Shown here piece after piece: positions 5,783-17,661 of a DNA stretch of 64,000 nucleotides (position 1 is its first letter; every line of letters begins with the position of its first letter). The notes beneath the pieces are model-generated. The model was not told the DNA's origin. It was given only the letters and a program-made list of their open reading frames with translations, and ran no database searches. A program made the translations under genes and the position numbers. Where the stretch lies: assembly GCF_055900595.2 (NCBI RefSeq), contig NZ_CM148325.1, one strand, 5' to 3'.

Positions 5783-8272
5783 ATGGAGTTCGTCAGAGAC
5801 TGGCAAAAACCGCGCCCCGCTATCGGGCGCGAAGGCTTACCCGTACCTGAAACCGCACTGGATACCATCCTGAAGTGTTACCGCGCAGACGAAGAGCGCG
5901 CACTGCACGCTGAAGAGCAGGGTCATCCGCTTGCGGGCACAACCATCGGTAACGCGATCGACAAGTGGGAAGGCGCACAGGAGCGCCAGGAAGAGGCCAT
6001 CACGCTCACACAGGAAGCGAGAAGACACCCGCCCACCCTTATTGAGGAAACCCTCAAAGAGCTGGACACCCTGCCCAAGTGGTTGAGGCTGCCGCTGATT
6101 AAGCACCTGAACTTTTTAAGGCGCAAACAGGAGGACGAACAACAGAAAGGCAAGCGCGGCAAGGACACCCGCAAATATGAGCGCTTCCTGAAAAACGGCA
6201 TCCCCGCACGTCTTCGCCGTATTCGTGAGATTAACGCTCGCTTTGCACCGTTAAGTTTTCAGGCCGCTGCCATGCGCGAGAGTCTGGAAGAACTGATCAC
6301 ACTGCCGAACCTGAGCCGTGAACGCATCCAGAAAATAGCCGTACTGCTTGCCAGCGCCGTTAAAATGCATCTTGCCGACGCAATGGACAAGGCCCGCGAA
6401 ATAACAGGGAACGACAAAGACGACAACCTGAACAACTGGCTGATTGCCTACCAGTATATTGGTCGCCGTGTCCTGAAGCTGGGGATCACCCCACCATACT
6501 GGAGCGCCCTTGAACTCCGCCCCGACCGCAGAAGCCCCCCGGACGTGACACTGGTTCCGGGCGCTGTTTTGCGCCTGAACGACGCCGAATGGTGGAATAA
6601 AAAACTTCGCCAGATGCACGACGTCTGGCGTGAGGAACTTTTACGTGCAGCGGGCCTTGTATCCCGCCAGACCTCCGTTTATGTGAGCCGTGAAGCGCTG
6701 GCAGACTTCCGCGAAAAACAGGCCCGTACCCGCGATTTTCTCAAAGCGCACGACGTGGAGAACGAAGACGGCGAACGCATCAGTCTGGAAGATATCTACT
6801 ACGCCAGTACATCCAACCCGCATAACCGCCGCAACGAGATGATGGCGTGCGTTAAGGGAATGGAGCTTATCGCACAGGAACGCGGCGACGTGGCCTTCTT
6901 CGTCACGGTCACAGCCCCGTCTCGTTTTCACAGCGTCACCGACGCAGGCACGCTGAACCCGAAATACAAAGGCGCAACCGTAAAGGACGCCAGCGACTAT
7001 CTGGTTTATAACTTCTTCGCCTCCGCCCGCAAACTCATCAAAAAAGAGAAGCGGGGCTGGTACGGCATTCGCACCGTGGAGCCTCACCACGACGGCACGC
7101 CCCACTGGCACATGCTGGTATTCACAAGCCCTGAGAACGAAGAGCGCATCACGGAAATCATGTGCAATGCCGCCATTCGCGAAGACCGGGCAGAGCTGGG
7201 CGACGACATCACCCCGCGCTTCAAGTGCGAGAAGATAGATCCCGAAAAAGGCACGCCAACCAGCTACATCGCCACCTACATAGGCAAAGGCATTGACGCC
7301 GCTGCATTCGGCGACACGGATCCAAAAACAGGTAAACCGCCCGTTGACCACGAAAGCGGAAAACCTATGGCGGACACCGTGGAAAACGCCGTCGCCTGGG
7401 CGCGCCTGCATCGCATTCGCCAGTTCCAGTTCTTTGGCCTCCCTTCCCGTCAGGTGTGGCGTGAGTTCCGCCGCCTTGCCGGACAAATGGCACGCAACCC
7501 GAAGGGGCCGCAGGCACTGACCAACCCCAAAGCCGACGCCCTCCTTGTTGCAGCCGATACGGGGTGTTTTGCCAGCTACATCATGCATCAGGGCGGTGTG
7601 CTCATTCCCCGTAGTGAATATCTGGCCCGCACAGCCTACGTCACCGCAGAAGAGCCGAACAATTACAGCGAATTCCCCGAGCGCATTTACGGTATCCGCA
7701 TGCCGGAACTGGGGGAGGACTTCACGTTATGCACCCACCCGGAAGAGTGGAAAATCGTCAGAAAGGAACCGGAACCAGACAACCGCACGGGCGAGGGTTT
7801 TGACCTTCAGGGCGGCCCCGCCGCCCCTTGGACTCGTGGCAATAACTGTCACCCTGACGAAAAAACAACCAACAACAGCACACAAACAGAACAGTCAGAG
7901 TGGGCAAAACTGCCCCCCTTACCCCCATCGTCGGACGGTTTTGTGAGCTGGTTTAAGTCGCTTAAGAGGCCGGACAGGAAAAAACTACAAAGATTGCTCA
8001 AAAAACGCACCGAAGAGAGTCGCCAGAACGCCAGCGGCGGCACCGACACACCCACCGACACCATTAACCTGGGCGTTGTGCTGCCGGAACTGCCGGAAAT
8101 CGTGCAAGTCCGCCGCGATCTGGAAGCGCTGGGCGCGGACTTCCCCGAAGCAATGGCCCATTCCGTCTTTATGGGTGCCCGCGTTCGTCTGGGTGACGGT
8201 CGCACCGTTCACCGCGACGAGCAGACCGGGCGCATCACCGTCACCAGTCTGCAACCGGAGGCGAAACCATGA
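5783..8272 (+). CDS. A: Replication initiation endonuclease, P2 gpA family
   Basis: 829-aa ORF at the position of P2 gene A (between the early genes and the portal); large rolling-circle-type replication protein. Confidence 0.75.
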   Translation: MEFVRDWQKPRPAIGREGLPVPETALDTILKCYRADEERALHAEEQGHPLAGTTIGNAIDKWEGAQERQEEAITLTQEARRHPPTLIEETLKELDTLPKWLRLPLIKHLNFLRRKQEDEQQKGKRGKDTRKYERFLKNGIPARLRRIREINARFAPLSFQAAAMRESLEELITLPNLSRERIQKIAVLLASAVKMHLADAMDKAREITGNDKDDNLNNWLIAYQYIGRRVLKLGITPPYWSALELRPDRRSPPDVTLVPGAVLRLNDAEWWNKKLRQMHDVWREELLRAAGLVSRQTSVYVSREALADFREKQARTRDFLKAHDVENEDGERISLEDIYYASTSNPHNRRNEMMACVKGMELIAQERGDVAFFVTVTAPSRFHSVTDAGTLNPKYKGATVKDASDYLVYNFFASARKLIKKEKRGWYGIRTVEPHHDGTPHWHMLVFTSPENEERITEIMCNAAIREDRAELGDDITPRFKCEKIDPEKGTPTSYIATYIGKGIDAAAFGDTDPKTGKPPVDHESGKPMADTVENAVAWARLHRIRQFQFFGLPSRQVWREFRRLAGQMARNPKGPQALTNPKADALLVAADTGCFASYIMHQGGVLIPRSEYLARTAYVTAEEPNNYSEFPERIYGIRMPELGEDFTLCTHPEEWKIVRKEPEPDNRTGEGFDLQGGPAAPWTRGNNCHPDEKTTNNSTQTEQSEWAKLPPLPPSSDGFVSWFKSLKRPDRKKLQRLLKKRTEESRQNASGGTDTPTDTINLGVVLPELPEIVQVRRDLEALGADFPEAMAHSVFMGARVRLGDGRTVHRDEQTGRITVTSLQPEAKP

Positions 8273-8679
8273 ACCGTTATCATTGTGTACTGCCGCGCCA
8301 CTACTTCGGTCAGATTATGCGCTCGCGTATTCCGGCGGTCACGCTGCGAAACCTGAGCACGGTACCGCAGCCGGGCGATGAGCTGGAAATCGCCGTAGCA
8401 GGCCCTGACCGTTCAGCCAGCTGCGTGACCGCCGACGTGCTGAACGCCGTGCCCGTAGGTGGTGACTGGCTGGTTGCCATCCGCTTCCGCCAAGACCCGT
8501 TCGCACCTGAACCGCTCACCCCCGCAGGCCGCATCATGCAGAACTGGCGGGATGAACGCGCGAAGGCGAACTGCGAAAAACTGATTAACAGGATTGCCAC
8601 GACAAACCGACATGCCGCGCTGGCGCGCCGGATATACCCCGCAAAATCAACACAACCAACAGGAGTAAAAGGCCCATGA
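8269..8679 (+). CDS. Hypothetical protein (136 aa), translationally coupled to A
   Basis: ATGA overlap with the A stop; no recognised family. Confidence 0.5.
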   Translation: MNRYHCVLPRHYFGQIMRSRIPAVTLRNLSTVPQPGDELEIAVAGPDRSASCVTADVLNAVPVGGDWLVAIRFRQDPFAPEPLTPAGRIMQNWRDERAKANCEKLINRIATTNRHAALARRIYPAKSTQPTGVKGP

Positions 8680-8804
8680 AAAGAATCGCCGGAACTGACT
8701 ACCAGGAGCTGCTTAAAGCGGTGGAAAACTACCGTTCAGCGCTGGTGTGGTGTGAGATTAAGCCCTGTGACCCGGGAGCAGTTAAGGATTGCAACCGGCG
8801 CGTG
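8676..8804 (+). CDS. Small hypothetical protein (about 42 aa), translationally coupled
   Basis: ATGA overlap with the upstream ORF stop; AGGAG Shine-Dalgarno. Below ORF track cutoff; low confidence. Confidence 0.3.
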
Positions 8805-8937
8805 AGGACATTCAGCGCGTAATTGGCTACCGCTATGTAGCAGCCATTATTGACCTTGTGAATGAACTGGAGGAAGCAAAAGAGCGCATCGCAGAACTGG
8901 AAACCCAGAATAACCCCAACCAGCAGGAGCAGAAGCC

Positions 8938-9519
8938 ATGAAAAAAAGAGACCTTAAAAAACACCTCCGTAGTCAGATTGAATATTTTGAAGATAAGGCT
9001 GCAAAAACAGGGCTTTCCGGTAAAGAGAACATGAACTTCAGGGCACACCTCCTGACGTGGAGAATACTTAATATCACGAGAGATGGACTTGAGCCGCTAG
9101 CCTACCTGATGGAAGATGGCGAGACCCTCATACAGGATCCCAATGTGGAAATGGAGAAGAAAGAGATGGACCTGCCGATAATCGGGCTGTTTGAGATCCC
9201 TGAACTAATAGGACGTTATGAACACGAAAACCGCCAGCTTGCCGCCTTTTTATCCGTGACAATCGAACGACTGGAAACCGTGAAACACGATATTCCGTTC
9301 GGTTTTGATGAGCGCACCGAGGGTGATTTGCTCAGCTTTCAGATTGCCCTGAACGTGCTCACCGCAGAGCCTTCTGCGTGGCTACGCCCGGAACGGCACC
9401 ACAACACGTTCGCATTTACCGTAATTCCCTACGATGCCGCACAGGAAGAGGATAACTTCGAGACCAGGCTTGTTCCCCTGTATCAGATTGCGGATTTCTA
9501 TACGTTGATTCGCTGGTAA
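8938..9519 (+). CDS. Uncharacterised cargo protein (193 aa)
   Basis: ORF track; AGGAG Shine-Dalgarno; acidic, no TM, no motif I can assign; followed by an intrinsic terminator. Confidence 0.55.
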   Translation: MKKRDLKKHLRSQIEYFEDKAAKTGLSGKENMNFRAHLLTWRILNITRDGLEPLAYLMEDGETLIQDPNVEMEKKEMDLPIIGLFEIPELIGRYEHENRQLAAFLSVTIERLETVKHDIPFGFDERTEGDLLSFQIALNVLTAEPSAWLRPERHHNTFAFTVIPYDAAQEEDNFETRLVPLYQIADFYTLIRW

Positions 9520-9532
9520 TCCCCCACAGTAA

Positions 9533-9558
9533 AACAGCCCGACCGGGCTGTTTTTTTA
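9533..9558 (+). terminator. Intrinsic terminator
   Basis: ACAGCCCGACCGGGCTG hairpin followed by T7. Confidence 0.6.
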
Positions 9559-9614
9559 TCTGATATTTTTGATAACGTTGACCGGCTCATTAGCAAAAAA
9601 GCAAAGAGGAAAAC

Positions 9615-10001
9615 ATGAAAGCCCGTATCGGGATCATCCCGGAAAAAGCCCTGCGCCAGCACCTGATTGATATTGCCAGAGGGAAGCGAAAACCACAGCC
9701 CGACGAGCCAAAGGTATGGTTTTCATCCATCAATGCGGCAGGCCAGACGCTGAGCAATGAAAATATCGCCCTTCTGCGTCTTATGAATGAGGAGAAGCCG
9801 CAGACCATGACCGCACTTGCGGAGTTATCCGGCAGAAAACTGAGCAACCTGTCTGTAACCCTGAAAATGCTGAGCAGCTACGGTTTTGTCAGTCTGGAAA
9901 AGAAAGGGAATACTGTACACCCGAAAGCACTTTTTACCGATTTTGAAATCATCGTTGATCCGTCCGTGGGTTCAGTACATCGCGCCACCGCCCGGCCCTG
10001 A
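9615..10001 (+). CDS. Small winged-HTH-like DNA-binding protein (128 aa)
   Basis: ORF track; AAGAGGA Shine-Dalgarno; central segment MTALAELSGRKLSNLSVTLKMLSSYGFVSL resembles a wHTH recognition region. Confidence 0.5.
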   Translation: MKARIGIIPEKALRQHLIDIARGKRKPQPDEPKVWFSSINAAGQTLSNENIALLRLMNEEKPQTMTALAELSGRKLSNLSVTLKMLSSYGFVSLEKKGNTVHPKALFTDFEIIVDPSVGSVHRATARP

Positions 10002-10013
10002 AGTGCGCAATAA

Positions 10014-10040
10014 ACAGCCCCGTTCGGGGCTGTTATTTAT
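10014..10040. terminator. Bidirectional intrinsic terminator
   Basis: CAGCCCCGTTCGGGGCTG hairpin flanked by T-rich sequence on both strands, between convergent genes. Confidence 0.55.
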
Positions 10041-10411
10041 TCCAGAATCAGCTGTTCAGGTGTGCAGCCGTACAGTCTGGCAAGGCGCTCAATATTTGCC
10101 CTGCGCGGGCGTTCTGTTCTTTCGAATTCGGACACGGTAGCCTGCCTGATACCCAGCGCATCCGCCACCTGCTTTTGCGTCATTCCGCGATAGATTCGCC
10201 ACGCCGCCTGCATGGTGCAGCCACGTTCCGAGAGGATGTTGACCACCTCGTTGGGATACAGCGTATCAGGCGATGCACTCGGTTCGTTCTGGACGTCCTC
10301 GTAGAGTTCGTCAAGGTCGCTGTCTCCTGCCAGTTTTTCAAACAACGCCACTGGCAGAATGACGGATACCCTGTTACCCGCACCGTCAGTAATAAACTGA
10401 ATCTGACTCAT
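10037..10411 (-). CDS. HigA-like antitoxin, XRE-family HTH (124 aa)
   Basis: C-terminal HTH (MTQKQVADALGIRQATVSEFERTERPRRANIERLARLYGCTPEQL); immediately downstream of a RelE/ParE-like gene. Confidence 0.65.
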   Translation of the reverse strand: MSQIQFITDGAGNRVSVILPVALFEKLAGDSDLDELYEDVQNEPSASPDTLYPNEVVNILSERGCTMQAAWRIYRGMTQKQVADALGIRQATVSEFERTERPRRANIERLARLYGCTPEQLILE

Positions 10412-10459
10412 TTGCCCCTCCTGCTAAACATCGGTTTATTTTTTAATTTGCTGCCGGTG

Positions 10460-10484
10460 ATAAAAAACGGCGGGTCGCCCCGCC
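10460..10484 (-). terminator. Intrinsic terminator-like hairpin between toxin and antitoxin genes
   Basis: On the minus-strand transcript: GGCGGG-GCGA-CCCGCC followed by GUUUUUUAU, starting directly after the toxin stop codon. Confidence 0.45.
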
Positions 10485-10757
10485 TTAGTATGTTGTCGAG
10501 GTTCTCCGCTGAATACGGAGGATCCTGATAACCACTATCTGCCCTCCCTCAATCGTGAACCTGACACGGTAATGATTTACCCTGAGTCTGTACTCCCCGC
10601 CCGAGTCAGTGAGCTTTTTAATATCCAGATTCTGGAACTTCGGATAGCCATAAAGCGCGTTAACTTTCTCGCGTAAGGATTTCTGATCCCTCGCTGGCAA
10701 AACCCGTAAATCTTTGATTGCCCGAGGGGTCCACATGATTTCAGTCGTCATAAACAC
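10485..10757 (-). CDS. RelE/ParE-superfamily toxin, HigB-like position (90 aa; start uncertain)
   Basis: MWTPRAIKDLRVLPARDQKSLREKVNAL...YRLRVNHYRVRFTIEGGQIVVIRILRIQRR fits the RelE/ParE pattern; toxin-first gene order is HigBA-like. Confidence 0.65.
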   Translation of the reverse strand: MFMTTEIMWTPRAIKDLRVLPARDQKSLREKVNALYGYPKFQNLDIKKLTDSGGEYRLRVNHYRVRFTIEGGQIVVIRILRIQRRTSTTY

Positions 10758-10860
10758 ACCGGAAGCAAATTATTAAAGAGCCGTGCCCGCTGGCACACCT
10801 TAAATATAGGTTTTAACCCCTATATTGTCAAACAAAATCCCTATATCATGAAGTAAAAAA
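10758..10860. promoter_or_regulatory. Putative operator/promoter of the HigBA-like module
   Basis: ATATAGG-N8-CCTATAT palindrome plus a second CCCTATAT direct repeat, directly upstream of the toxin gene. Confidence 0.4.
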
Positions 10861-10879
10861 GCACCTCCCGCGACCTCCC

Positions 10880-11130
10880 TTTCCGGTGCACGAAAGTGCA
10901 CAAATTTGCACAATTTTTTTGAACGACTTTTTGCCCTTCCGGCCCGTGTGGCGTCTGGATCCGTCGGGGATCCGTGCGTGCACGAAAAAAGGCCTTTTTC
11001 TGCGCGCAGGTGACGGGGGAACAGCCCGCGTTTCAGGGGGTAAATAGCATTCCCTGAACGATGTTGCAGTGACACAACAGAATGGCTGTATTTCTCACGC
11101 TGAGCGTGAAAAAGACGTAAGGGCTTTTGA
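10880..11130. other. Palindrome-dense non-coding stretch (candidate structured RNA or protein-binding array)
   Basis: Consecutive perfect palindromes/hairpins: GTGCAC-GAAA-GTGCAC (10886-10901), GGATCC-GTCGG-GGATCC (10957-10973), CGTGCACG, AAAAAGGCCTTTTT (10986-10999), CTGCGCGCAG (10999-11008), CACGC-TGA-GCGTG (about 11096-11108). Confidence 0.4.
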
Positions 11131-11340
11131 TTTGATGGGGTGAAAGATAAGGCCGTCAAAATCGCACTGAGGCAGCGAGAATATGTCGTCAGAGTTGCGG
11201 GGTTGCGTAAGCATCCGCCCGGCGATGATGGCTACAGGGCTGGAGATGTTGTGAAATTATCTGAAGGAATAACCAGCTTGCAGGAGAACCCGGGCAAAGT
11301 CAGAATAGCGGCAGGCATCAACTCAAAAGAGGATAATGTC

Positions 11341-11844
11341 ATGAGCCACTTTAATGATTTATGCCAGATCAATCGTGAAGCTGAAGAAAAACGCGCTGAG
11401 GCAGCTCAAATTTTGCGGGATGAAGCGGCAAGGCTGATTGATTTCTATGAAGAATGGCTGGGGCTTCCATCCATGTACTGGGAAGACGATGATGGCGACC
11501 TGCACCGCTACGTGGAGACAGGCTTGCCATGTAAGACAGCGGCGGATTTTAGTCCTCTTTCAGTCCACAATATCGCATCTGCACCAGACAATATTTTCCG
11601 CATGGCCGTACGAACCTGGGTTAAGTCATCTGACAGCAGCTACCCGGTAAGCGTGGTTATTGCACTTGAATTATATTCAGTAGATGCGGAACGGGTGTCT
11701 CTGAGAGTCCGGGTGGAAGACGATATTTCTGTTCGCGTATTTATCAATAAACCCAGCGAAGAAGCCTGGGGCGATGTTGTTATGCACATGAAAAAGCACA
11801 TCGCTAATCACCTGAAAAAGCGAGCGCCATCAGCACTTCGTTAA
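11341..11844 (+). CDS. Uncharacterised cargo protein (167 aa from ATG 11341; ORF track gives a 234-aa version from GTG 11140)
   Basis: Strong AAGAGGA Shine-Dalgarno before ATG 11341; sits in the position P2 uses for old, next to the portal gene; followed by the palindrome GGGGCATAAATTTTTTATGCCCC. Confidence 0.5.
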   Translation: MSHFNDLCQINREAEEKRAEAAQILRDEAARLIDFYEEWLGLPSMYWEDDDGDLHRYVETGLPCKTAADFSPLSVHNIASAPDNIFRMAVRTWVKSSDSSYPVSVVIALELYSVDAERVSLRVRVEDDISVRVFINKPSEEAWGDVVMHMKKHIANHLKKRAPSALR

Positions 11845-11910
11845 GCAGAGCTGGAGAGTCGGGGCATAAATTTTTTATGCCCCGGCGAAGCAGCAGACAA
11901 GCGAAGCGCG

Positions 11911-12966
11911 TCAGGATATGGGCCGGGTGTCTAACAGTGCGTAAGGGTTAAAACGGATCACCTCTTCGCCCAGCCAGTCGTTGACGTGTTTCATTGCTTC
12001 CATGACGGGCATCAGTTCGTTAATGGCAAACACACGGGCTGCCTTCTCCACATCCCCGAATGACCCCTTCTCACCCGGCATGGCCCCCATCAGCTGAGGT
12101 GGCACGCGGTGCACAGCCAGCACGTCATCACGCGATGCGGCCTTGACGTTCATGAACTCATCCTTTGCGGTGATTTGCTGAAACGGCAAAATCTGTACGC
12201 CATCCTTACCACCTCCCGCCGCGTGGATGAGCAGATTTTTAAACGCCCCGCCACCACGCGCGCTTTGCAGTGTTTCCCGCAGTTTTTCCATGCTTTCACG
12301 GTCAACCTGCGCCGCACCGATGTAGACAATACAGCCCGCGTGTGAGCCGTTATCGTAGTAGAGCTTGCGGAAGATATCGGCGGAATGTGACAGGCTGGCA
12401 GACAGCAGGCCGCCCAGGTAATCCGGCATCCCGTAAATCTCCTGGTTGATATCAGGATTCATCAGGTGGCATATCGTCCCCTCACGAAAGCGGTACTCTT
12501 CCTGTCCTTCCTGTATATACCACCATGATTTCATATCGCTGCCACGTCGCATGTATTTCGCCAGCGCCCGGCGCAGGGCCAGCGGTTCGCCAAGCATGTT
12601 GCGCCGCAGCTCAAGACAGGCATTACCGAACACAAACCAGTCCATCGCCACCCCGGCGAACTCCTGGCGGGACAGCAGAGGATGTGGAATATAGCAGCCC
12701 AGCAGCACATTACGTTTGAAGCTGAGCGCCGACTGGTGCCAGGACGTCTGGCGGGCAGCCCGTGCCAGTCCGTACCAGTCAACGGGCGTTTCAAACCACC
12801 GCCCGTTGTCGGCGCAGTACATGCTGTCCAGCAGGTCGGCCCCTGACAGCCGGTAAGGTCCTTCAAACGTGAAGGCACTCAGTGTCGGGTCGCTTCGCAG
12901 GGAATCCGCAAGGCTGCCCTGCGCTGCGCGGGCGTTCGTACGTCGTTGTTTATTTTTTCTGCTCAT
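11911..12966 (-). CDS. Q: Portal protein, P2 gpQ family
   Basis: 351-aa ORF divergent from the capsid operon and adjacent to the terminase large subunit, as in P2. Confidence 0.8.
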   Translation of the reverse strand: MSRKNKQRRTNARAAQGSLADSLRSDPTLSAFTFEGPYRLSGADLLDSMYCADNGRWFETPVDWYGLARAARQTSWHQSALSFKRNVLLGCYIPHPLLSRQEFAGVAMDWFVFGNACLELRRNMLGEPLALRRALAKYMRRGSDMKSWWYIQEGQEEYRFREGTICHLMNPDINQEIYGMPDYLGGLLSASLSHSADIFRKLYYDNGSHAGCIVYIGAAQVDRESMEKLRETLQSARGGGAFKNLLIHAAGGGKDGVQILPFQQITAKDEFMNVKAASRDDVLAVHRVPPQLMGAMPGEKGSFGDVEKAARVFAINELMPVMEAMKHVNDWLGEEVIRFNPYALLDTRPIS

Positions 12967-14717
12967 CAGAACTCCGTAACACTGAAGGGGGCGGCATCAT
13001 GTTCACCGCCGACAGGTTCGTTGATAACGGCCAGCATGGTGGCCCATGCAAGATCGCCATGGCTTACGCCTCTTGCGCGATCTGTTTCGTAGGTGATAAA
13101 TCCGGCCTGCGTTTTTGTTTTGCGTACCGCGTTAAAGGCGCTCACCAGTTCGCGCTCGCTGCGGTCGTACTCCCACCGCCCGGCGCGCATGAGCTGCAGC
13201 ATCTTCAGAACCAGCGTGCGCTTTGATGACAGGGTGAAGGTGTAGGGAATGGCTGCCGGAAAAAAGCGCTTCACAATCTGATACACCGCATCCCCGTGAC
13301 CGCCGGTTACGTCAATACCGATATGCTCAACGTTATAGCGAAAGGTGAACTCTTCAATCACCTTCGCCTGCGCCTCAAACTCCAGCCCCTGCACCCGCCG
13401 CGTCTCCACGGTGCGAAAACGCCCGCCCGGTACGGCTGGCGGCACCACCACGACAACCGCCCCGCTGTCACCGTTCCCGCTACTGCCGTTGGCGTCGTAC
13501 CCAATCCACACAGGGCGGTTCCCCATCGGACGCGGTGCAAACGGCTTCCAGTCCGGCCACTCGTCGTATCCGTCAACACCGCAGCCAATCAGGATATTCA
13601 GGTTAAATGCCGATTCCCCTTCGCGAGCAAATTCACACATGTAGAGATTGCGGAACTCGTCTTCAGTGTTATTGCGCCGGATTTTGTCAATGTTGGTTAA
13701 CGTCCATCCCTGACTGACCACATCTTCCAGCGTCACAATTTGCCGCCAGATATAGTCAGGACAGATAAGGCCGTTATGAAGCGCATTCCAGCTCACATCA
13801 AAATGCTGACGTTTATGAGTACGAAGCCCTTCATTCCAGTGATCGCCGTTCCAGTATGCATACGCCTCATGTGTTTCACTTGATGGCGTGGAAAAATAGG
13901 TACACCGCAAACCATCCAGCGTTGCCATAGCAGCAGCCACCTTGCGCAGCTCTGCGAAACGCCCCGTCCAGAAAAACTCATCAAAATACAGATTCCCTGT
14001 GTACGCTTGCGCGGTGGCCGCAGAAGTGCCGAGAAAATGCAGCTCTGCACCGTTGGAGAGGATGACTTTATCGCCCCCTTTCAGTTCCACATCAACTTCA
14101 GATGCAGCCTTCTGAATAATGCTTTTAAACTGGAGCGCCTGACGACGAGACGCAGACAAAAAAATCTGGTTACGCTGGTAAGGTTGTGCCACATCGTCAC
14201 GCAGCGCCATCAGCAGCGCTTCCTGCGCAAAATACCAGGTCGCCCCAATCTGGCGGGATTTCAGGATCATCCTGTCAGTAATTCCGGCACGCTCACAGGC
14301 ACCGATAGCATCAAGCCATTTGCGCTGGTGTCCGGCCAGCCTGTCGGTAATTTTTTCCCGCAGCGCCGCGATCTGTTCCGGCGTGAAATGATTTTTGTGT
14401 TTTTTCGCCCGGCCTTTCTTTCCTGTTGCCGTCTCATCCGGCAGACCGTCATGCAGCTTTTTAAGCTGACGGGTCAGCAAATCAATTTCCTTAAAGTCCC
14501 CGCCTGTTTTATTCTGTTTTTCCGTGAGCTGAATGAGTCGCGCATCCATGGACTGCGTGACACGCTGAACCGGGGGCGTCTCATCCCACTGGTCGCGTTT
14601 TTTCCACGAATGGATCGTGTTCTGGTTGATACCCATAAGGCGGGAAATTTCCGCAACAGGGTAACCCTGCCAGTACAGCTGGCGTGCCCGCTGGCGAACA
14701 AATGTATCCTGAATCAT
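12966..14717 (-). CDS. P: Terminase large (ATPase) subunit, P2 gpP family
   Basis: 583 aa with an N-terminal HTH (YWQGYPVAEISRLMGINQNTIHSW); position matches P2 P. Confidence 0.85.
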   Translation of the reverse strand: MIQDTFVRQRARQLYWQGYPVAEISRLMGINQNTIHSWKKRDQWDETPPVQRVTQSMDARLIQLTEKQNKTGGDFKEIDLLTRQLKKLHDGLPDETATGKKGRAKKHKNHFTPEQIAALREKITDRLAGHQRKWLDAIGACERAGITDRMILKSRQIGATWYFAQEALLMALRDDVAQPYQRNQIFLSASRRQALQFKSIIQKAASEVDVELKGGDKVILSNGAELHFLGTSAATAQAYTGNLYFDEFFWTGRFAELRKVAAAMATLDGLRCTYFSTPSSETHEAYAYWNGDHWNEGLRTHKRQHFDVSWNALHNGLICPDYIWRQIVTLEDVVSQGWTLTNIDKIRRNNTEDEFRNLYMCEFAREGESAFNLNILIGCGVDGYDEWPDWKPFAPRPMGNRPVWIGYDANGSSGNGDSGAVVVVVPPAVPGGRFRTVETRRVQGLEFEAQAKVIEEFTFRYNVEHIGIDVTGGHGDAVYQIVKRFFPAAIPYTFTLSSKRTLVLKMLQLMRAGRWEYDRSERELVSAFNAVRKTKTQAGFITYETDRARGVSHGDLAWATMLAVINEPVGGEHDAAPFSVTEF

Positions 14718-16878: not shown

Positions 16879-17661
16879 ATGCTGACACCGGCACAGGCTC
16901 ATTTCCAGCGCGTGATGGCTTTACGGGCAGGAACGGCAGCAGAAAACGAGGATATCGTGGCCCGCACGGCTCATGAGCAGGTCCTTCACCGTCTGCGCCT
17001 GGCACAGCAACGCATAAAGGGCGTCCAGGCAAAAGCGGCAAAGGCCGCGCTCAAGCGTGAAATGCTGCCGGGTTTTGCAGGCTGGATAGACGGCACGCTG
17101 GAAGCCGACGGCGGACAGCAGGATGAGGTGATAGCCACACTCATGGTGTGGGCCGTGGACTGTGGCGACCTGGCGCTTGCACTGCGCATCGGGGATTATG
17201 TGGTTCGCCACAACCTCACGATGCCTGACAACTTCGGGCGTACGGCAGCCACGGTACTGACCGAGGAAATCTGCAACCCTGTTCTGACACAGGCCGGAAC
17301 GGATGCACACGCCGATTTGTCCGGCTACATCGAACCGCTGGACACCCTCTGGCAAATTGTCGCGAACCGGGACATGCCCGATGAGGTCCGCGCCAAGCTG
17401 TGCAAGGCATGCGCCTTTGCCCGTCGTGGCCTGACCGATGCCGACAGCATGGCGGTGAGTCTGAAGCTGTTCCGTGAGGCAATGCACCTTAACCCGAATG
17501 CGGGGGTAAAACGTGAGATTGCCACGCTTTCACGGGCCCTGAAAAAGGCCGGACAGGATGAAGCCGCTGCCGCACAGGAGCCTGCGGCACAGAAAGATAC
17601 AACCAGAGAACAGACCACGACGCCGAAGGCGAAAGCGAAAGCGAAGGCGAAACGTGGTTAA
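16879..17661 (+). CDS. M: Terminase small (endonuclease) subunit, P2 gpM family
   Basis: 260 aa at the M position; lysine/alanine-rich C-terminal tail. Confidence 0.75.
   Translation: MLTPAQAHFQRVMALRAGTAAENEDIVARTAHEQVLHRLRLAQQRIKGVQAKAAKAALKREMLPGFAGWIDGTLEADGGQQDEVIATLMVWAVDCGDLALALRIGDYVVRHNLTMPDNFGRTAATVLTEEICNPVLTQAGTDAHADLSGYIEPLDTLWQIVANRDMPDEVRAKLCKACAFARRGLTDADSMAVSLKLFREAMHLNPNAGVKREIATLSRALKKAGQDEAAAAQEPAAQKDTTREQTTTPKAKAKAKAKRG

Follow-up and report, generated by a model that had tools for sequence, protein, structure and literature searches.

A palindrome-rich, previously unannotated block in a P88-like prophage is very probably its cos region

The cos sites of P2, 186 and P4 have 19-nt 5′ cohesive ends and a common 55-bp core (PMC3931495, PMC9122126 and PMC9594776, each citing Ziermann and Calendar 1990). 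P2 and P4 share this 55-bp core (PMC9594776), and cos is all that P4 has in common with P2. For P2 cosmids, longer flanks raised transduction about 10^4-fold, which of the sequences matter being left unsaid (PMC9594776). In P2-like phages, the region between gpA and the portal gene is a hotspot for defence genes that adjoins the cos packaging site (PMC9122126).

Here we describe a block of non-coding DNA in a window of 64 kb (the whole stretch of DNA analysed, 64,000 nucleotides) that contains a P88-like prophage (Xuanwuvirus, Peduoviridae). A reading made from the sequence alone had singled out positions 10880-11130 as dense in palindromes and had placed them, in a P2-like prophage, between a toxin-antitoxin module and a gene for a 167-aa protein. 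A PHROG scan agrees with this context. To the left lie the P2-type replication nickase gpA (5783-8272, plus strand), an HTH antitoxin (10037-10411, minus strand) and a RelE-like toxin (10485-10757, minus strand). To the right, the gene for the 167-aa protein (11341-11844, plus strand) matches phrog_5091, with no NCBIfam or PADLOC match and no function assigned by match. Next come the portal gene (gpQ homologue, 11911..12966, minus strand; phrog_68, E 1.5e-146), which serves as the landmark for the position of cos, and the gene for the terminase large subunit TerL (gpP homologue, 12966..14717, minus strand; phrog_5751, E 2.9e-153), 45% identical to TerL of 186. The terminase small subunit TerS (gpM homologue, 16879..17661, plus strand; phrog_74, E 7.6e-78) is 36% identical to its counterpart in 186.

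All six dyads named by the sequence-only reading are present where it had placed them, as read on the plus strand: GTGCAC-GAAA-GTGCAC (10886-10901), GGATCC-GTCGG-GGATCC (10957-10973), CGTGCACG (10977-10984), AAAAAGGCCTTTTT (10986-10999), CTGCGCGCAG (11000-11009) and TCACGCT-G-AGCGTGA (11095-11109), the last of which had been given in the shorter form CACGC-TGA-GCGTG. Counting perfect inverted repeats with arms of at least 5 nt and loops of at most 8 nt, we find 10 dyads with 57 arm bases in 10880-11130, compared to 2.4 ± 1.6 dyads and 12.8 ± 8.8 arm bases in dinucleotide-preserving shuffles of the same interval; the observed values are reached by none of 2000 shuffles. Around 0.2% of all 251-bp intervals in the 64 kb equal 10880-11130, and each of them overlaps the same locus. 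The palindrome density is therefore as unusual as had been suspected, and this is the densest place in the window.

The palindromes themselves are poorly kept among relatives. We scored the dyads of 10880-11130 as pairs on an alignment of 43 diverged relatives, each at most 93% identical, and found that pairing is kept only by the self-complementary cores TGCA and GCGC. The long dyads are clade-specific, with a paired share of 59% for GGATCC-N5-GGATCC, 54% for AAAAAGG/CCTTTTT and 52% for TGTTG/CAACA. The dyad GTGCAC-GAAA-GTGCAC corresponds to two of three direct repeats with a 10-bp spacing, and its palindromic form is not conserved because the first of these repeats (box 1) reads ATGCAC, CTGCAC or CCGCAC elsewhere. 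Thus the earlier emphasis on palindromes holds for their density, but what is conserved is a set of four direct, phased GCAC boxes together with an invariant G-rich 19-mer. Most of the palindrome excess follows as a by-product from the self-complementary cores of the boxes (TGCA, GCGC), along with spacer dyads that are clade-specific; the high density, though real, is largely incidental to a protein-recognition site.

The block as a whole is conserved. In BLAST searches against phage records, homology begins exactly at 10887 and ends at about 11192 with 88-93% identity, and the carriers are P88 and other Xuanwuvirus/Peduoviridae phages of E. coli and Citrobacter. An Enterobacter phage has the left half of the block at 75% identity. 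Among complete E. coli genomes, the block is found in 1102 records from 1101 of 5426 genomes (around 20%), where it is about 90% conserved. The left flank accompanies it in only 9 of the 1102 records, so that the cargo beside the block varies while the block stays. For partial matches in E. coli, the homology starts at box 1 in all cases among the matches listed. In P88, 145 bp separate the block from the stop codon of the portal gene. In none of the P88/Xuanwuvirus records (NC_026014, NC_049391 and others) is the block labelled as cos; they have no feature or short hypothetical ORFs there. The P88 paper does not mention cos.

The conserved block, read on the plus strand, consists of several parts. 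Its left edge is formed by three phased TGCAC boxes 10 bp apart (10887-10891, 10897-10901 and 10907-10911; span 10887..10911), whose GCAC is invariant across the 43 diverged relatives, and we propose that these boxes are the distal recognition array of the terminase small subunit. The spacer between box 3 and box 4 (10914..10978) sets the two boxes exactly 72 bp apart from start to start, and this distance is 72 in the window, P88, phiT5282H, P2, P4 and 186. It contains a nearly invariant T7 run (10914-10920) and a near-invariant motif TGCCCTTCCGGCCC (10932-10945). In their spacers, P4, 186 and the P88-type clades outside E. coli share, in close variants, the motif CTGGCGCGGTCTGAG; the dyad GGATCC-GTCGG-GGATCC is specific to the E. 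coli clade. Judged by eye, the spacer has no clean match to the IHF consensus.

Box 4 (TGCAC, 10979-10983) and the A-tract that follows it (together 10979..10990) are invariant in the 43 relatives and start 30 bp before the 19-mer. Box 4 would be the proximal recognition box. Its counterpart in P2, P4 and 186 is TGCATTAAAA at -29, within the published 55-bp cos core (PMC3931495, PMC9594776). Next is a variable segment of 12-14 nt followed by an invariant GCGCA that abuts the 19-mer (10991..11008), and the dyads AAAAAGGCCTTTTT and CTGCGCGCAG are formed here. The sequence and length of the variable segment depend on the clade, and the distance from box 4 to the 19-mer accordingly ranges from 29 to 31 nt. 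The 19-mer itself, GGTGACGGGGGAACAGCCC (11009..11027), is the putative cohesive-end segment, based on its position relative to the four boxes. In sum, the invariant columns of the alignment are the GCAC of boxes 1-3, the T-run, the TGCAC of box 4 with its A-tract, and GCGCA with the 19-mer and the next CG.

To the right of the 19-mer, the flank GCGTTTCAGGGGGTAAAT (11028..11046) ends the part that is shared with a satellite-like island described below, and a comparable CGCGC…GGGGG pattern is found in other clades and in P2/186. The remainder (11047..11192) is an extension of the E. coli P88 clade, 88-97% conserved in E. coli relatives and absent from the satellite and the Enterobacter-type clades. 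It holds TGT-N12-ACA (11062-11079) and the dyad TCACGCT-G-AGCGTGA (11095-11109), and within it begins a 42-codon frame annotated as gp22 (hypothetical) in P88. This frame is probably not a gene, since it is without third-position bias (15, 11 and 8 variable sites at codon positions 1, 2 and 3) and is truncated in around 10 of 66 loci. A 234-aa ORF from a GTG at 11140 (11140-11844) is the 42-codon frame fused to the 167-aa cargo gene, and the latter has its own Shine-Dalgarno sequence and an ATG at 11341.

To compare the block with described cos sites, box positions were measured with GGTGACGGGGGAACAGCCC (11009-11027) as origin and set against the cohesive ends of P2, P4 and 186; these ends are annotated in the P2 and 186 records, and the P4 end was taken as the start of its linear record. 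The TGCAC boxes start at -122, -112, -102 and -30 in the window and at -123, -113, -103 and -31 in P88 and phiT5282H. The corresponding boxes read TGCAT in P2, at -123, -111, -101 and -29, and in P4 and 186, at -124, -111, -101 and -29. Positions in the window thus agree with those in P2, P4 and 186 to within 1-2 bp. A four-box pattern with such spacings has a single match on both strands of the 64-kb window, at 10887, with 1e-5 expected by chance.

Compared at the place that the boxes define, 13 of the 19 bases of the 19-mer agree with the P2 cos sequence GGCGAGGCGGGGAAAGCAC and 6 differ. This identity alone is not significant: 126 19-mers in the 64-kb window match P2 cos at 12 or more positions, two of them at 14. 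It is significant only because the boxes fix the position independently. A search with the P2 19-mer at up to three mismatches found no match; it missed the homologue, which has six mismatches and was found only through the box architecture. Likewise, nothing convincing came of aligning the block directly, as a simple pair, to the cos junction of P2. MAFFT puts the P88-type 19-mer 2 nt out of register with that of P2. Both this shift and an uncertainty of about 2 nt in the nick positions follow from the varying distance between box 4 and the 19-mer. A joint alignment of P2, P4, 186 and loci from the box-anchored scan described below is colinear from box 1 to about +37.

The likeness to P2, 186 and P4 extends beyond the boxes. 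The block is placed between gpA with its cargo and the 3′ end of the portal gene, as is cos in P2-like phages (PMC9122126; P2 and 186 records). Three boxes at about -123, -111 and -101 are followed by one at -29 or -30, boxes 3 and 4 being 72 bp apart; the cut position is occupied by a G-rich 19-mer between GCGC-rich flanks; and the site is shared with a satellite. Among the differences, the boxes are TGCAT in the P2 group but TGCAC in the P88 type, and 6 of 19 positions of the 19-mer are changed. A hairpin CCGCCC…GGGCGG stands beside the cut site of P2, whereas the P88 type has the variable segment and GCGCA instead. The window also has a cargo gene between cos and the portal gene. With TerS at 36% and TerL at 45% identity to their counterparts in 186, cross-packaging with P2 is doubtful.

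Scanning IMG/VR with the 19-mer recovered at least 120 loci. In nearly all assessable loci (around 100 of the at least 120, namely those whose DNA includes the portal gene), the portal stop is found at about +280 to +333 from the 19-mer or, where a cargo gene is inserted, at about +905 to +956. Both this placing of the portal stop and the identity of the 19-mer hold even where portal and gpA are just 65-70% and around 30% identical, respectively, to those of the window. One hit (L040) was discarded as a chance match of the 19-mer in coding DNA without boxes.

Boxes 2 and 3 alone served as the anchor of another scan, which is therefore unbiased for the 19-mer. Most of the 52 newly fetched loci have the identical 19-mer; variants at the same position are AGTGACGGGGGAACAGCCC, GGTGCCGGGGGAACAGCCC, GGTGACGGGGGAAAGGCCC and GGCGCCGGGGGGACAGCGC. 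Two IMG/VR loci (L166 and L179) have the 19-mer GGCGAGGCGGGGGAGCAAG, of which the first 12 nt, GGCGAGGCGGGG, equal P2 cos. These loci have P88-type TGCAC boxes and a TerL that is 66% identical to that of the window compared to 46% to that of 186. With a TerL of the P88 lineage and a P2-like first 12 nt, they link the P88 and P2 types. This combination indicates that box type and cut-site type do not always change together.

One further locus (L122) has the boxes, the spacer and the 19-mer, with portal and terminase absent. Its annotated copy (L130; NZ_CP033635.1, 1332184-1344457) is an island of around 12 kb beside a tRNA-Arg gene and yfdC. The island encodes an integrase, an HTH regulator, an Icd-like protein, a toprim primase and a second integrase, followed by the cos block; further genes are for an Ogr/Delta-like zinc-finger protein, a 236-aa protein without assigned function, a capsid-like protein and MazEF. 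The capsid-like protein (423 aa) is a divergent P2-family major capsid protein whose match to TIGR01551 (E 3e-39) falls short of the curated cutoff. The island lacks genes for portal, terminase and tail, and tblastn of it found no P4 psu, sid, delta or alpha and only a P4-type integrase.

The homology of the island to the window covers only box 1 to about +37 (-122..+37), where it is identical to the P88 type, and then diverges. This delimits the functional core to about 10886-11046. Of 5426 E. coli genomes, 55 contain at least 80% of a 3.9-kb island query that reaches from the capsid-like gene to the cos block; the NZ_CP033635 genome (strain ECCNB12-2) also carries a P88-like prophage. Judged by its gene content, the island looks like a satellite of P88-type phages with its own capsid homologue. 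Like P4, which has only cos in common with P2, it shares only the cos block with the P88 type.

We also considered the ends of database records. None of the phage-collection records starts at the 19-mer, and literature searches for the 19-mer and for P88 cos returned nothing. The linear record of P88_4B11 (NC_049391.1, Xuanwuvirus; L001/L006) is the only linear P88-type record cut inside the block, and it starts at -77 (window 10931|10932), between …GAACGAATTTT and TGCCCTTCC…. This position was rejected as a true end: the motif there is absent from L052, L105, L166, L179, P2, P4 and 186, all of which keep the 19-mer region. We consider the start of this record to be probably arbitrary. Contig ends in IMG/VR were set aside as markers of physical ends, because the loci are arbitrary slices of contigs.

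Based on these comparisons, 10886-11046, with a clade-specific extension to about 11192, is very probably the cos region of this P88-type prophage of the P2 family. The assignment, made from sequence comparison, would make the block a previously unannotated cos of a well-known kind, with the same architecture as P2 cos and no new kind of biology. Two of the possibilities raised at the outset, a packaging signal and an array of protein-binding sites, both fit the evidence; a multi-hairpin RNA is not supported.

After replication, the phage terminase would recognise the cos block on phage DNA. TerS, the gpM homologue, is presumed to be the reader of the TGCAC boxes and would bind all four of them, the three phased by 10 bp at -122, -112 and -102 and the one at -30. 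That it is only 36% identical to TerS of 186 fits the changed box sequence. Probable bending or wrapping of the fixed 72-bp spacer, rich in A/T tracts (T7 run, A-tract), could let the distal triplet act jointly with the proximal box and place TerL, the gpP homologue, on the invariant GCGCA-GGTGACGGGGGAACAGCCC. TerL is the presumed nuclease: staggered nicks at the 19-mer would leave 19-nt 5′ cohesive ends, and the DNA would be packaged through the portal. We infer that terminase recognises the block and cuts at the 19-mer from homology with P2, given TerS and TerL at 36% and 45% identity to those of 186; the nick positions, the 19-nt overhang, the direction of packaging and the subunit that binds the boxes are likewise put forward as expectations.

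The proposal that TerS reads four boxes across a bent spacer comes from an analogy with the R sites in lambda cosB. In lambda, three R sites of 16 bp are bound by gpNu1, IHF bends the DNA and the overhang is 12 nt; the repeats are on the end that is packaged first (in part PMC4669245). As a working analogy only, the cosQ-cosN-cosB arrangement and the P88-type block are alike in that several short repeats, serving the small subunit, stand to one side of a nicking site and that the DNA between probably has to bend. They differ in that there is no sequence relationship between the two and no clear IHF consensus in the P88-type block. A need for more than the 55-bp core would also fit the roughly 10^4-fold gain that longer flanks gave in the cosmid data (PMC9594776).

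Other explanations of the block account for less of the data. A structured multi-hairpin non-coding RNA would explain why the region folds better than shuffled sequence (z -2.8 for the plus strand, -3.0 for the minus strand), but equal z-scores on both strands are what is expected for DNA dyads. Rfam has no match in the block even at E ≤ 10, the plus strand has no promoter-like site there, and the only terminator-like site (10896-10911, plus strand) is the stem of boxes 2 and 3 followed by the T-run. The relatives show no covariation either: the long dyads are 52-59% paired over the 43 relatives with only the invariant self-complementary cores persisting, pairs changed on both sides are below the shuffled mean (496 of 500 shuffles are at least as high), and the supposed stems are filled by one-nucleotide indels and clade-specific replacements. 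We regard such an RNA as very improbable. Nor does the region have a conserved reading frame, in line with the lack of coding signal noted before. The minus-strand ORF 10800-11159 had been thought spurious, and so it appears, since the frame that stays open over the core changes from one relative to another; the longest one across the 19-mer gives GLFPRHL, RAVPPSP or VGCSPVT depending on the locus. Partition is another function to weigh, as 10-bp phased repeats could form a parC-like centromere for the ParM/ParR genes of P88, and in both P88 and P88_4B11 the genes for ParM and a partition protein stand 1-2 kb upstream of it. In ParMRC systems, however, parC is normally directly upstream of parM, and the boxes are kept in the window, where the scanned ORFs between gpA and the block (8269-10757) have no partition-family match, as well as in the satellite, whose annotation lists no partition genes. 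Since the same boxes are found in P2, P4 and 186, the chance that the block is a parC is close to nil.

The position of the block between divergent cargo genes would suit an operator or promoter array for the toxin-antitoxin pair or the 167-aa gene. The sequence TGT-N12-ACA at 11062-11079 (TGTTGCAGTGACACAACA) also fits the activator-site consensus of Ogr/Delta/B-dependent late promoters (P2/P4/186), which lies about 55 bp upstream of the start site. The site is kept in the E. coli clade, as TGTCG…CGACA in P88 (both arms changed, the dyad kept) and as TGTCG…CAACA in most relatives. Yet TGT-N12-ACA occurs 13 times in the 64-kb window compared to around 16 expected, and no good -10 element follows 11062-11079, so that it may be an Ogr-type activator site or a chance match. 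If the site is real, the cargo gene to its right would be under late control. Against regulation of the cargo by the block itself, the block is kept beside unrelated cargo in around 1100 genomes and in a satellite, and the toxin-antitoxin promoter (TTGACA-17-TATATT, 10831..10803, minus strand) lies outside it with its CCTATAT repeats; an operator array is highly unlikely. These CCTATAT/ATATAGG repeats occur at 10804-10810 (inverted), 10819-10825 and 10840-10846; two of the copies flank and overlap the -35 and -10 elements of the promoter, and the third is just upstream of the -35. They are probably the antitoxin operator and part of the cargo, outside the conserved block. A role primarily in recombination, with the block serving cargo exchange at the hotspot, is compatible with cos function, and the cargo differs immediately left of box 1, with another variable slot on the side of the portal gene. 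According to a speculation by Rousset et al., recombination at the hotspot is seeded by cohesive ends (PMC9122126). There is no recombinase gene adjacent to the block in the window and no attC- or att-type repeat structure, and selection for an essential cos amid dispensable DNA would account equally well for the sharp boundaries. We consider a primary role in recombination unlikely.

With the block read as cos, the surrounding cargo falls into two slots. On the gpA side, three cargo ORFs without assigned function lie at 8269-10001, between gpA and the toxin-antitoxin pair: a 136-aa ORF with a match to phrog_14984, a 193-aa ORF with no match in any library, and a 128-aa ORF with a match to phrog_11214 and weaker ones to winged-helix families (ArsR or CasR-like), these being weak matches. 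The location of the three ORFs within the defence hotspot makes them a candidate undescribed anti-phage system; PADLOC and NCBIfam gave no function for the cargo genes near the block. Between cos and the portal gene, an insertion of around 580 bp (11263-11846) carries the gene for the 167-aa protein, and an insertion of similar size is found there in many relatives. The portal stop at about +905 to +956 instead of +280 to +333 in many relatives points to a second cargo slot on the portal side of cos.

The unannotated cos can now be placed for a very common group of E. coli prophages, present in around 20% of complete genomes. Placing it allows the two cargo slots of the gpA-portal defence hotspot to be delimited correctly and spurious 'hypothetical protein' calls over cos to be removed, and it makes possible the design of P88-type cosmids or transducing particles. 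By-products worth a short follow-up are the family-wide four-box layout, the intermediates and the satellite-like island with a capsid homologue. Tentatively, and with a little less than even confidence, we suggest that the four phased TGCAY boxes could be the small-terminase code of the whole P2 family. The change from TGCAT to TGCAC together with the changed 19-mer would then define a separate packaging-specificity group with its own undescribed family of satellites (the tRNA-Arg island with its Ogr/Delta-like activator and divergent P2-type capsid, in 55 of 5426 E. coli genomes), which would parasitise P88-type helpers via cos. Since the fixed four-box layout is common to P2, P4, 186 and the P88 type, the rules of terminase recognition in the P2 family and the specificity between helpers and satellites become directly testable.
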